A stretch of DNA of 64,000 bases from Escherichia coli (GTDB lineage: Bacteria; Pseudomonadota; Gammaproteobacteria; Enterobacterales; Enterobacteriaceae). The stretch lies in NCBI RefSeq assembly GCF_003334305.1, contig NZ_QOWS01000015.1; one strand, 5' to 3'. How positions within the stretch are numbered: position 1 is the stretch's first letter; each line of letters opens with the position of its first letter. This document shows, in pieces, positions 33,211 through 61,671 of the stretch. The translations under genes were made by a program, and so were the position numbers. The notes under the pieces were generated by a model. The model saw only the letters and a program-made list of their open reading frames with translations, had not been told where the DNA came from and did not search any database.

Positions 33211-35172
33211 ATGCGGTTGTTTATTGCCGAAAAACCGAGTCTGGCGCGCGCCATTGCTGATGTCCTGCCCAAACCGCACCGTAAAGGCGATGGCTTTATC
33301 GAGTGCGGTAATGGTCAGGTGGTGACCTGGTGTATCGGTCACCTGCTTGAGCAGGCGCAGCCAGACGCCTACGACAGCCGCTATGCGCGCTGGAATCTTG
33401 CGGATTTGCCGATTGTCCCGGAAAAGTGGCAATTACAGCCCCGACCCTCCGTGACCAAACAACTTAACGTCATCAAACGGTTCCTGCATGAAGCCAGCGA
33501 AATCGTTCACGCCGGGGACCCGGATCGCGAAGGGCAACTGCTGGTGGATGAAGTGCTGGACTATCTACAACTGGCACCGGAAAAGCGCCAGCAGGTGCAG
33601 CGTTGCTTGATAAACGACCTGAACCCGCAGGCGGTTGAGCGGGCGATCGACCGTCTTCGTTCCAACAGTGAGTTTGTACCGCTGTGCGTTTCTGCGCTGG
33701 CGCGAGCGCGTGCCGACTGGCTGTACGGCATCAATATGACCCGTGCGTATACCATTCTCGGTCGCAATGCCGGTTATCAGGGCGTACTTTCCGTGGGACG
33801 CGTGCAGACACCCGTGCTCGGGCTGGTGGTGCGCCGCGATGAAGAGATTGAAAACTTCGTGGCGAAAGACTTCTTTGAAGTCAAAGCGCATATCGTGACA
33901 CCTGCCGATGAGCGGTTTACCGCTATCTGGCAACCGAGCGAAGCGTGTGAACCGTACCAGGATGAAGAAGGGCGCTTGTTACATCGTCCACTGGCGGAGC
34001 ATGTGGTTAACCGCATTAGTGGTCAACCGGCTATTGTCACCAGCTATAACGATAAACGGGAATCAGAATCCGCGCCGCTGCCGTTTTCGCTTTCGGCGTT
34101 GCAGATTGAAGCGGCAAAACGCTTCGGTCTGAGCGCGCAGAACGTGCTTGATATCTGCCAGAAGCTGTACGAAACGCACAAGCTAATCACTTATCCGCGT
34201 TCCGATTGTCGCTATTTGCCAGAAGAACATTTTGCCGGACGCCACGCGGTGATGAATGCCATCAGCGTTCATGCACCGGATCTGTTGCCGCAGTCAGTGG
34301 TAGATCCAGATATACGCAACCGCTGTTGGGATGACAAAAAGGTCGATGCGCACCACGCCATCATTCCGACCGCAAGGAGTTCTGCGATCAACCTGACGGA
34401 GAACGAAGCGAAGGTCTATAACCTGATTGCCCGTCAGTATCTGATGCAGTTCTGCCCGGATGCGGTGTTCCGCAAGTGTGTTATCGAACTGGACATTGCC
34501 AAAGGCAAATTTGTCGCTAAAGCGCGTTTTCTTGCTGAAGCAGGTTGGCGCGCGCTGTTAGGCAGCAAAGAGCGCGATGAAGAAAACGACGGCACGCCAT
34601 TGCCTGTGGTGGCGAAAGGCGATGAGTTGCTGTGTGAAAAAGGTGAAGTGGTAGAGCGGCAAACCCAGCCGCCGCGCCATTTTACCGATGCAACACTGCT
34701 TTCGGCGATGACCGGGATTGCGCGCTTTGTGCAGGACAAAGATCTGAAAAAGATCCTTCGTGCGACCGATGGTCTGGGGACAGAAGCAACGCGTGCCGGG
34801 ATTATTGAACTGTTGTTCAAGCGTGGTTTCCTCACCAAAAAAGGGCGCTATATCCACTCCACCGACGCCGGAAAAGCGTTATTCCATTCGCTGCCAGAAA
34901 TGGCTACGCGACCGGACATGACCGCGCACTGGGAATCGGTGCTGACGCAAATCAGCGAAAAGCAGTGTCGCTATCAGGACTTTATGCAGCCGCTGGTGGG
35001 GACGCTATATCAGCTTATTGATCAAGCCAAACGTACTCCGGTGCGGCAGTTTCGCGGCATTGTGGCTCCGGGCAGTGGTGGCAGTGCTGATAAGAAAAAG
35101 GCTGCACCGCGTAAACGTAGTGCGAAAAAAAGTCCGCCAGCAGATGAAGCCGGAAGCGGGGCGATAGCGTAA
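33211..35172 (+). CDS. topB: DNA topoisomerase III
   Basis: Translation begins [14 protein letters not shown]; type IA topoisomerase; start at internal ATG 5 nt after the selD stop, about 653 aa. Confidence 0.95.
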
Positions 35173-35211
35173 GCGAGCGAATCTTTCGTGCTATTCGAGT
35201 CATATTCTGAA

Positions 35212-35252
35212 ATATCCAGCGGATCAAGAAAATTCGTTGGATATTTTTTTTG
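35212..35252 (+). terminator. Rho-independent terminator of topB
   Basis: 10-bp stem atatccagcg/cgttggatat (one mismatch) followed by T8. Confidence 0.7.
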
Positions 35253-35299
35253 CATGGATAAAATTATCGCCTCTAAAGTATGTAATAACAGGGAATGTG

Positions 35300-36341
35300 A
35301 TGAAAAAAGTTTTATTACAAAACCATCCTGGGAGCGAGAAGTATTCTTTTAATGGCTGGGAAATATTTAATAGTAATTTTGAACGGATGATTAAAGAAAA
35401 TAAGGCCATGCTGCTTTGTAAGTGGGGGGGTGTATTTAACATGTGTTGTCGCTGTAATGTTTGTATTCGCAGCGATAACATCCAACGGTTTGAATGAAAG
35501 AGGCCTGATTACTGCGGGATGCTCTTTTCTTTATCTATTAATTATGATGGGGCTTATTGTTCGGGCCGGTTTTAAAGCAAAAAAAGAACAACTGCATTAT
35601 TATCAGGCTAAAGGTATTGAGCCGCTCAGTATCGAGAAGTTACAGGCGCTACAATTGATCGCACCTTATCGATTCTATCATAAGCAATGGTCTGAAACGC
35701 TGGAGTTCTGGCCGCGAAAGCCTGAACCTGGCAAAGATACCTTCCAATATCATGTGCTTCCTTTTGACTCGATCGATATCATAAGTAAAAGACGCGAGTC
35801 TTTAGAGGATCAATGGGGTATCGAAGATAGCGAAAGTTATTGTGCCTTAATGGAGCATTTTCTTTCTGGCGACCATGGAGCCAATACCTTTAAAGCAAAC
35901 ATGGAGAAAGCCCCAGAGCAGGTTATCGCCTTGTTGAATAAATTTGCTGTTTTTCCCTCAGACTATATCTCTGATTGCGCTAATAATCGCTCCGGTAAAT
36001 CCTCGGCGAAGCTAATATGGGCGGCGGAATTATCATGGATGATCTCGATATCAAGCACAGCTTTTCAAAACGGGACAATTGAAGAAGAACTGGCCTGGCA
36101 TTATATAATGCTTGCTTCTCGAAAGGCGCACGAGTTGTTCGAAAGCGAAGAAGATTATCAAAAAAATAGTCTAATGGGATTTCTTTACAGGCATATCTGC
36201 TGCTATCGCAGAAAGTTAACGGATGCTGAACTTGAAGCGTGTTATCGTTACGACAAGCAGTTTTGGGAGCACTACAGTAAGAAATGCCGTTGGCCCATAA
36301 GAAATGTTCCCTGGGGAGCATCATCCGTTAAATACTCATAA
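35300..36341 (+). pseudogene. ynjI: DUF1266 inner membrane protein gene ynjI, frameshifted at a 7-G homopolymer (35424-35430)
   Basis: The MKKVLL... frame stops at 35497; the main frame opens at GTG 35430; removing one G would fuse them into a 346-aa ORF. Confidence 0.6.
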
Positions 36342-36349
36342 ACGCCTGA

Positions 36350-36450
36350 AATTTTGCCGGGGGCGCTGCGCTTGCCCGGCCTACATTAGAGCGTAACTGC
36401 AATGAATTGTGCCCATTTGTAGGCCTGATAAGCGTAGCGCCATCAGGCAT
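36350..36450. repeat. REP/BIME palindromic units between ynjI and gdhA
   Basis: gtaggcctgataagcgtagcgccatcaggc and an upstream gcccggcctaca unit match the REP consensus. Confidence 0.7.
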
Positions 36451-36457
36451 TTACAAC

Positions 36458-37801
36458 TTAAATCACACCCTGCGCCAGCATCGCATCGGCAACCTTCACA
36501 AAACCGGCAATGTTCGCGCCCTGCACGTAGTTGGTTTGCTCACCTTCACCACCATGCTCAACACAGGCATGGTGGATATCCAGCATGATGTGATGCAAAC
36601 GTGCGTCAACTTTCTCGGCTTTCCAGCCCAGGCGCGCAGCGTTTTGTGCCATTTCCAGGCCCGACGTTGCTACACCGCCAGCATTAGCCGCTTTACCCGG
36701 TGCAAACAGTACGCCTGCCTGCTGGAACAGTTCAGTCGCTTCGATGGTGGTCGGCATATTTGCCCCTTCAGCGACGGCTTTAACGCCATTGGCGATAAGC
36801 TGATGCGCGGCGTCAACATCCAGTTCGTTCTGGGTGGCGCAAGGCAGGGCGATATCAACCGGTACAGACCACGGCTGTTGGCCTTCGAGATAGACCAGAC
36901 CAAATTCTTTGGCGTAATCTGCCACTCGACCATCGCGGCTGGCTTTGATTTCGATAAGACGTGCCAGTTTCTCTTTCGTGAATCCGCTTTCATCAACTAC
37001 AGTGCCGCTGGAGTCTGACGCAGTGATCACACGAGCACCAAATTCCATCGCTTTTTCGATAGCGTACTGGGCGACGTTGCCGGAGCCAGAAACGGAAACG
37101 CGCATCCCTTCAAAACCCATACCGTGGCGTTTTAACATTGCTTCTGTGAAATAAACCAGACCGTAGCCGGTAGCTTCCGGGCGAATAAGACTACCGCCAA
37201 ATGAAAGGCCCTTACCGGTGAAGACGCAGGCGGTATTGTTGGAGAGCTTTTTCATCATCCCCGCCATAAAGCCGACTTCACGACCACCAACGCCGATATC
37301 ACCTGCCGGAACGTCGGTATCCGCGCCCAGATGACGATAAAGCTCGGTCATCAGCGCCTGGCAGAAACGCATCACTTCGCCTTCGCTTTTACCTTTCGGA
37401 TCAAAATCGCTACCGCCTTTACCACCGCCCATCGGCAGGGTAGTCAGGGCATTTTTGAAGGTTTGTTCGAAGCCGAGGAATTTGAGAATGGAGAGGTTAA
37501 CTGACGGATGGAAGCGCATACCGCCTTTGTACGGGCCGATGGCAGAGCTGAACTGCACACGCCATGCACGGTTGACCTGTACCTGATTGCGATCATCAAC
37601 CCATACCACGCGAAACTGGATCACGCGCTCCGGTTCAACCAGACGCTCCAGTAATGACATCTGGCGATATTTTGGATTTTGTTCAAGAAAAGGCCAGAGT
37701 GTGGTCATTACTTCACGAACGGCTTGCGCGAACTCGGTTTGATTCGGGTCGCGCTTTTGGACATGGTTGAGGAATGACTCCAGAGAATATGTCTGATCCA
37801 T
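36458..37801 (-). CDS. gdhA: NADP-specific glutamate dehydrogenase
   Basis: 447 aa with the Glu/Leu/Phe/Val dehydrogenase active-site Lys motif (GPYKGGMRF). Confidence 0.95.
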   Translation of the reverse strand: MDQTYSLESFLNHVQKRDPNQTEFAQAVREVMTTLWPFLEQNPKYRQMSLLERLVEPERVIQFRVVWVDDRNQVQVNRAWRVQFSSAIGPYKGGMRFHPSVNLSILKFLGFEQTFKNALTTLPMGGGKGGSDFDPKGKSEGEVMRFCQALMTELYRHLGADTDVPAGDIGVGGREVGFMAGMMKKLSNNTACVFTGKGLSFGGSLIRPEATGYGLVYFTEAMLKRHGMGFEGMRVSVSGSGNVAQYAIEKAMEFGARVITASDSSGTVVDESGFTKEKLARLIEIKASRDGRVADYAKEFGLVYLEGQQPWSVPVDIALPCATQNELDVDAAHQLIANGVKAVAEGANMPTTIEATELFQQAGVLFAPGKAANAGGVATSGLEMAQNAARLGWKAEKVDARLHHIMLDIHHACVEHGGEGEQTNYVQGANIAGFVKVADAMLAQGVI

Positions 37802-61567: not shown

Positions 61568-61671
61568 GTCGTTATACCTGACAATTCACATATCTGTACT
61601 GTTGCTGGATTATTTATGTCCGGGGGGGCAGATATGCCAGATATCAGTATTCTGTACTGAAGGGAGAAATT

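Follow-up and report, generated by a model that had tools for sequence, protein, structure and literature searches.

A frameshifted ynjI allele and recurrent length change of its poly-G tract in Escherichia coli

The ynjI gene in the 64-kb stretch of Escherichia coli DNA analysed here (the window) is best explained, at a probability of about 80%, as a fixed and heritable null allele that arose by slippage in an apparently hypermutable G-run, in a dispensable accessory gene for an inner-membrane DUF1266 protein. The gene is not one uninterrupted ORF of ~346 codons. Its frame is broken at 35424-35433, and it is an orthologous pseudogene rather than a functional member of the YnjI/DUF1266 family. 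The frameshift as such is already known. Over window positions 14001 to 64000, all 50,000 compared bases match strain A7 in reverse complement (NZ_CP028767.1, from orangutan faeces), and in the RefSeq record of that strain ynjI is marked as a pseudogene ('DUF1266 domain-containing protein', 'frameshifted'). What is new is a lineage-wide example of a known process, in which a homopolymer grows and then slips recurrently under relaxed selection.

The split gene and its surroundings

The order topB-ynjI-gdhA is the same as in K-12. In the window, topB has its stop at 35172 and gdhA lies on the minus strand at 36458-37801. The intergenic region between the topB stop and ATG 35300 (35173..35299, plus strand) holds the ynjI promoter and 5' leader, and the 130 nt upstream of the ATG carry one difference from K-12. 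In K-12, BglJ-RcsB acts as an activator of the ynjI promoter, on which H-NS/StpA exert partial repression (PMC3950696). Judging from the near-identical promoter region, the window locus is probably still transcribed under those K-12 conditions.

The pseudogene (35300..36341, plus strand) is 1042 nt long, versus 1041 nt for the K-12 gene (b1762). Its first part, ORF1 (35300..35497, plus strand), encodes 65 aa, of which 43 are the authentic YnjI N-terminus and 22 are out of frame, before a TGA at 35495-35497. The G7 run at 35424-35430 (plus strand, context AAGT GGGGGGG TGT ATTTAAC) belongs to a variable 10-nt tract, GGGGGGGTGT (35424..35433, plus strand), that is homologous to the 9-nt GGGGGTTTT of K-12. 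Were it not for a T at 35431 (plus strand), the uninterrupted run would be G9; the same T also makes the GTG at 35430. From this GTG a downstream ORF of 303 aa (35430..36341, plus strand) runs to a TAA at 36339-36341, and includes two hydrophobic segments and the DUF1266 domain. Long G or C runs are rare in the window, which has two G7 runs and no C run of 7 nt or more, against many A/T runs of 7-8 nt.

An earlier, sequence-only reading had described a frame that starts at ATG 35300, crosses the G7 run and stops at 35497, a DUF1266 frame that opens at the last G of the run and ends at 36341, and a 346-aa protein restored by deleting one G. In the ORF reading of the window, every coordinate claimed for the frameshift checks out to the base: the downstream frame has 303 codons, and a stop-free frame of 1041 nt (346 aa) results from the one-G deletion. 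The K-12 length of 346 aa given in that reading is that of b1762. A simple change from G6 to G7 is not borne out, as the tract at this site in K-12 and O157:H7 is GGGGGTTTT and not G6; relative to K-12, the window tract has one additional base and two T-to-G changes.

After restoration of the frame, the window protein differs from K-12 YnjI by F44V, E203K, H229N, S230R, Q291L and W297R. Intact orthologues of 346-347 aa are found in K-12, O157, WCHEC020031, S40 and Ec387. The DUF1266 domain (PF06889) matches residues 167-338 of K-12 YnjI (Pfam, E = 2.9e-25), and five residues differ between K-12 and the window's downstream ORF within this region. The haplotype comparison identifies the A at 35907 (plus strand, E203K) as the second of two substitutions private to the A7 clone, and the A at 36189 (plus strand, W297R) as common to one poly-G sub-haplotype. 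Hydropathy of YnjI peaks at ~aa 42-62 and 68-88, which puts the tract (residues 42-45) on the N-terminal border of the first of the two hydrophobic segments. In-frame residue variants at this position (GF, GV, GG, GGG and GGD) are evidently tolerated. In the split gene, ribosomes that start at ATG 35300 would read 43 authentic codons, lose the frame in the tract and terminate at 35495-35497, so that neither the membrane segments nor the DUF1266 domain would be made.

Tract alleles and the origin of the window's allele

The comparison of G-tract length across E. coli genomes that the sequence-only reading had suggested found a grown run in ~1,000 of 5,426 complete genomes. This sample was searched with allele-specific queries of 74-77 nt, and representative loci were read. 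The resulting allele counts are approximate, with 16-20 half-length 100% matches subtracted from each count at ≥99% identity. The G5T4 type, which is in frame, is the most numerous (~2,470 genomes). The poly-G alleles in frame are G8T (~444 genomes), G9 (~81), G7TT (~21) and G11T (~11, encoding 347 aa), and those out of frame are G9T (~170), G10T (~89), G6T (seen once) and the window's G7TGT (one genome, A7 itself). The frame is thus kept at tract lengths of 9 and 12 nt and lost at 7, 10 and 11 nt. In-frame alleles make up ~536 of the resolved poly-G alleles versus ~260 out of frame, while ~200 of the ~1,000 poly-G genomes fall outside the allele classes, having another tract length or a SNP in the 75-nt probe. 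G6TTT (G6T3), which encodes KWGVYLT, was counted in contigs and not in complete genomes; at least 69 contigs of a large protein and contig collection carry it.

The alleles G5T4, G6T3, G7T2 and G8T are all extant, and this series suggests that T was converted to G step by step along the 3' boundary of the run. The ancestral GGGGGTTTT thus grew through successive substitutions to G6T3, G7T2 and G8T. Once the run had reached ~8 G, the allele distribution shows repeated length changes, which yielded the in-frame G8T, G9 and G11T and the out-of-frame G9T, G10T and G6T.

All poly-G alleles belong to one ynjI haplotype family, marked by N229, R230 and synonymous markers, and tract length varies within each of its sub-haplotypes. 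The R297 sub-haplotype carries G8T (O27:H7), G9T (AR_452, JNU, O103:H2), G10T (SE11, AH25) and G7TGT (the window), the basal sub-haplotype carries G9T, G10T, G11T and G9, and the 372G sub-haplotype carries G8T and G6T. The flanks were compared in a 16.5-kb alignment of 15 poly-G genomes plus K-12. Over this length O27:H7 (G8T) and O103:H2 12009 (G9T) differ by 9 SNPs, and SE11 (G10T) differs from both by ~30 SNPs. In the central 3.7 kb the three genomes are only 0-2 SNPs apart, despite carrying G8T, G9T and G10T, respectively. We take SE11 and O103:H2 12009 to be Sanger-era genomes. By Fitch parsimony on neighbour-joining trees, the 16 taxa require 10-11 changes of allele, and the frame state must have switched at least 5 times. 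A further pair, ETEC-2264 (G10T) and O114:H49 (G9T), has no SNPs in 16.5 kb, but was down-weighted because ETEC-2264 has a nearby 'frameshifted' ydjE, suggesting indel errors in the assembly. Some of the length differences between assemblies could therefore be homopolymer assembly errors.

Tract states are inherited by large clones rather than scrambled. Among the matches listed, 29 genomes from many laboratories have 99.8% identity to the window, and the same length, over 1171 nt, and 10 of these also appear among the exact G9T matches listed. Tract variation between close relatives is seen in the lineage, and none is seen within the window's own clone, of which the three sampled assemblies are identical. 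Taken together, these comparisons point to a ynjI G-run that is hypermutable in one E. coli lineage. Recurrent length change of this kind fits the length dependence of the indel rate: in E. coli this rate climbs with homopolymer length, and G.C runs of 8 bp are already outliers in K-12 (PMC8510543).

The closest ynjI sequences in complete genomes are G9T alleles of the same length, with two differences over 1171 nt (35431 and 35907). These closest haplotypes all have G at 35431; the T at this position is found only in A7 among the 5,426 complete genomes, and additionally in the independent assemblies L027 and L028. G6TGT, which would be an in-frame parent one G shorter, is found in 0 of the 5,426 complete genomes. 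It was also sought through proteins with KWGVYLT, which turned out to be encoded by G6TTT instead. As the nearest haplotypes are the already frameshifted G9T and G6TGT is absent, the +1 slip most likely occurred in a G8/G9 run. The window allele is thus most simply derived from a +1 G9T allele by a later G-to-T change at 35431. In this order of events, G8T would have become G9T through a +1 slip that created the frameshift, and G9T would have become G7TGT through the substitution at the eighth position. Pseudogenisation by slippage, one of the possibilities raised by the sequence-only reading, therefore stands as to the nature of the lesion. The history it implied does not, as the G7 run would be what a G-to-T change left of a longer one; deleting one G fixes the frame but does not retrace the history of the allele. 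The derivation from G9T relies on haplotype parsimony within a recombining region.

The T at 35431 cuts the uninterrupted run from 9 to 7, and the resulting OFF state would be much more stable than its G9T parent because slippage depends on run length. A run of G7 can still revert through a -1 slip, which counts against a fully fixed null. No in-frame YnjI with K203 is present among ~15 billion proteins, and it fits with this that E203K arose after ynjI had been inactivated.

Decay of ynjI and alternative readings

The gene is widely dispensed with. It is absent from ~1,940 of the 5,426 complete genomes (36%), including ST131 and O18 strains, absence being scored where the 400-bp topB and gdhA flanks of the query span 870 bp, versus 2,085 bp with ynjI. 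Within the poly-G lineage, W246* (TGG to TAG) is found in ~274 genomes, on both G8T and G6T tracts, W240* is found in strain JNU, and IS1 is inserted in ynjI in several genomes. The gene in the window is thus disrupted relative to intact close orthologues, and its loss is tolerated, as seen from W240*, W246*, IS1 and absence elsewhere. Derived changes polarised within the poly-G clade comprise 4 missense and 2 nonsense versus 2 synonymous, a ratio that is roughly the neutral expectation, although the numbers are small. From these changes ynjI appears to be evolving neutrally in the poly-G lineage. Against the null reading, in-frame lengths are still the majority of resolved poly-G alleles, and the promoter region is conserved. 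The in-frame G8T majority is not usable as a sign of selection on the frame, because G8T is probably ancestral in the poly-G lineage and part of it carries W246*.

A sequencing or assembly artefact is scarcely credible. It would mean that a homopolymer error had put the extra base, or the T, into a tract that is really in frame. Several sequencing platforms do make errors in runs of 7-10 G, and among complete genomes the exact G7TGT occurs only in the window's own source record. However, exactly GGGGGGGTGT is also present in the NCBI draft L027 (GCA_022976695.1), which differs from the window by 1 SNP in 6,885 nt, and in the Logan assembly of run DRR416898 (L028). The homopolymer sequencing error that the sequence-only reading had allowed for is rejected by this comparison. 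In addition, the clone-specific 294-aa ORF with K203 and R297 occurs on 11 contigs, two of which were retrieved, the +1 frame is common to ~170 complete G9T genomes including O103:H2 12009, and the exact 65-aa ORF1 peptide, shared with G9T alleles, is found on at least 1000 contigs (NCBI, ENA, JGI and Logan).

Despite the split, the protein might still be made in part or in full. Function of a truncated product would require that the 303-aa ORF (GTG 35430) or the 294-aa ORF (ATG 35457) supplies a membrane-anchored DUF1266 domain. Both hydrophobic segments and the whole domain are kept in the downstream ORF, the 294-aa version is routinely called by gene callers, and the T at 35431 makes a GTG immediately preceded by a run that matches the anti-Shine-Dalgarno sequence strongly; at -8.9 kcal/mol, it ranks within the top 1.2% of the window's ATG/GTG sites. 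However, this Shine-Dalgarno-like run abuts GTG 35430 directly, with essentially no spacer, and internal initiation there was judged unlikely; the next in-frame ATG, 35457, is preceded by no Shine-Dalgarno match. Translational coupling is also unlikely because ribosomes on ORF1 stop 67 nt past the GTG. W297R and E203K lie within the domain, and relatives carry nonsense mutations inside it. With such poor initiation contexts at GTG 35430 and ATG 35457, the 303-aa ORF is probably untranslated, and a functional truncated product is improbable. The GTG-started 303-aa ORF is absent from the large public protein and contig collection, where it stays off record because gene callers start at ATG 35457 (294 aa). 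Full-length YnjI could alternatively come from a programmed +1 ribosomal frameshift on GGG-GGG-G, or from slippage of RNA polymerase on the G run. Re-pairing of tRNA-Gly in the +1 frame is conceivable on this run, whose strong anti-Shine-Dalgarno match is also relevant here, as an internal Shine-Dalgarno-like sequence stimulates frameshifting in prfB. This reading is nevertheless very improbable: most orthologues are single-frame, so that the two-frame layout is not conserved; the shift site has neither a slow codon nor a stop codon, and no structure was identified downstream of it; and the out-of-frame alleles G9T, G10T and G6T are in both +1 and +2 registers, which one signal cannot serve. 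Slippage of the E. coli RNA polymerase is documented on long A/T runs, not on G7.

A further reading is an adaptive contingency locus, in which B1-type E. coli would turn YnjI on and off by slipped-strand changes of the poly-G tract, with the window in the OFF phase. The lineage of SE11, O103:H2 12009 and the ETEC relatives, which we presume to be phylogroup B1, would then have evolved the tract de novo, and G7TGT would be a switch locked OFF by a point mutation, an unlikely proposition. The tract lies early in the ORF (codons 42-45), and its length sets the reading frame, is polymorphic from G6 to G11 on near-identical flanks, is most commonly in frame, and has grown directionally from G5 to G8 or more. 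The gene belongs to an envelope-stress-linked regulon, and for glpK of Mycobacterium tuberculosis, frameshifts in a G/C run of 7 bp are reported to be reversible (10.1101/717272). However, mutation alone accounts for the growth of the run, and the gene is not otherwise kept functional. Irreversible lesions (W246*, W240* and IS1) are frequent in this lineage, most derived changes alter the protein (6 non-synonymous or nonsense versus 2 synonymous), and over a third of E. coli genomes lack the gene. Tract states are clonally inherited, as in the 29 listed near-identical genomes, ten of which appear among the exact G9T matches listed, and the run of the window is interrupted, with three sampled assemblies in agreement. 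No mention of the ynjI tract turned up in a literature search that covered ynjI, DUF1266 and phase variation through poly-G runs in E. coli. Of the slipped-strand switch proposed by the sequence-only reading, the hypermutable site is thus retained for the lineage, but nonsense and IS lesions that accumulate in the gene, together with the interruption of the window's run, make an adaptive switch unlikely.

Relation to known systems

Alone, the window allele is of little importance, being a pseudogene already flagged by RefSeq. The fixed null allele is of wider interest as part of a clean natural series, in which boundary substitutions lengthen a short run into a slippage hot spot that inactivates its host gene repeatedly. 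Because it evolves fast, the tract is a candidate marker for telling close strains of the lineage apart, and is also a known trap for homopolymer assembly errors. The decay of the gene indicates that ynjI, which encodes an uncharacterised DUF1266 membrane protein, is dispensable across much of the species. If the tract does switch usefully and YnjI has a phenotype, E. coli would have in ynjI a contingency locus of an unusual kind for the species; a phase-variable inner-membrane DUF1266 protein of the BglJ-RcsB regulon would, if true, be a rare simple-repeat case in mismatch-repair-proficient E. coli.

The K-12 YnjI (b1762), an inner-membrane DUF1266 (PF06889) protein and BglJ-RcsB target, is orthologous to the window gene and has the same neighbours, topB and gdhA. 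The two are ~98% identical after frame restoration, with an almost identical promoter region. Unlike the K-12 gene, the window ORF is split at codon 44 and carries E203K and W297R.

The poly-G/C contingency loci of Neisseria, Haemophilus and Campylobacter likewise have a frame-setting tract in the 5' part of an envelope-protein ORF, and their tract length also differs between close relatives. By contrast, mismatch repair is intact in E. coli, a species not known for loci of this type; furthermore, ynjI decays irreversibly, and its length changes are known here from sequences and not from within-culture switching. The interrupted G7 of the window is as short as, or shorter than, the tracts that are usually called phase-variable. 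The 7-C run of M. tuberculosis glpK is also a 7-bp coding G/C homopolymer, in which +1 and -1 changes inactivate and restore the gene. Unlike for ynjI, reversion and a selectable phenotype, drug tolerance, are reported to have been demonstrated for glpK (10.1101/717272).

The window allele itself resembles enterobacterial homopolymer pseudogenes marked as 'frameshifted' by PGAP, which similarly involve a single-base change in a run, are clonal, are recorded as pseudogenes in RefSeq and have relatives with further lesions. Unlike those one-off cases, the ynjI run itself evolved from G5T4 to G8 or more, and has been hit independently many times across ~1,000 genomes.

Disruption and absence of ynjI in other genomes

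An IS1 element lies within or beside ynjI, the DUF1266 gene between topB and gdhA, in strains EC2641 (NZ_JALDNN010000001.1), N9 (NZ_CM165877.1) and C21-2 (NZ_CP146893.1). The ynjI match is broken into two pieces by IS1 in all three, and these are additional, independent disruptions of the gene. A topB-gdhA interval that does not carry ynjI at all is found in approximately 1,940 of the complete genomes, for example in ST131 strains and strain O18. In a query that took in 400 bp of flanking sequence from each of topB and gdhA, the span is 870 bp without ynjI versus 2,085 bp with it.

The G-run and homopolymer lengths

The G-run at 35424-35429 pairs with the anti-Shine-Dalgarno sequence at -8.9 kcal/mol; when the sequences preceding every ATG and GTG of the window are compared for this pairing, it ranks in the top 1.2%. 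This internal, Shine-Dalgarno-like run in ynjI could cause ribosome pausing, and in the longer G8-G11 alleles of other E. coli the match would be stronger still. The window holds a single further G7 run, CCGGGGGGGCAG at 61622-61628, placed by the annotation of strain A7 in the chbR-celF intergenic region.

Homopolymer counts from public genomes need caution, as they may carry consensus errors. The ydjE of strain ETEC-2264 (805-2162 in the fetched locus L019) is annotated as frameshifted, and its flanks are SNP-identical to those of the O114:H49 strain 90-9280. A frameshifted gene on SNP-identical flanks suggests that part of the single-base length differences between complete assemblies stems from consensus errors.

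Two further intergenic regions

Between ynjI and gdhA, E. coli O43 RM10042 carries an inserted IS621 (IS110-family) transposase, at 11139-12119 of its fetched locus (L012). The counterpart in the window is the intergenic region at approximately 36342-36457, the sequence of which, judged by eye, looks like putative REP-type palindromic repeats.

Across the yeaC-pncA gap at approximately 27483-27642 of the window, pncA directly adjoins yeaC-msrB-gapA, and thus the genes that run from ydjE to ydjL in K-12 are missing there. Among the related genomes fetched, the pncA-yeaC arrangement is as in the window in WCHEC020031, O27:H7, O103:H2, ECC-1470, STEC711 and Ec387; ydjF-ydjE are retained beside pncA in O43, 204446, O114:H49, SE11, ETEC-2264, S40 and GSH8M-2.
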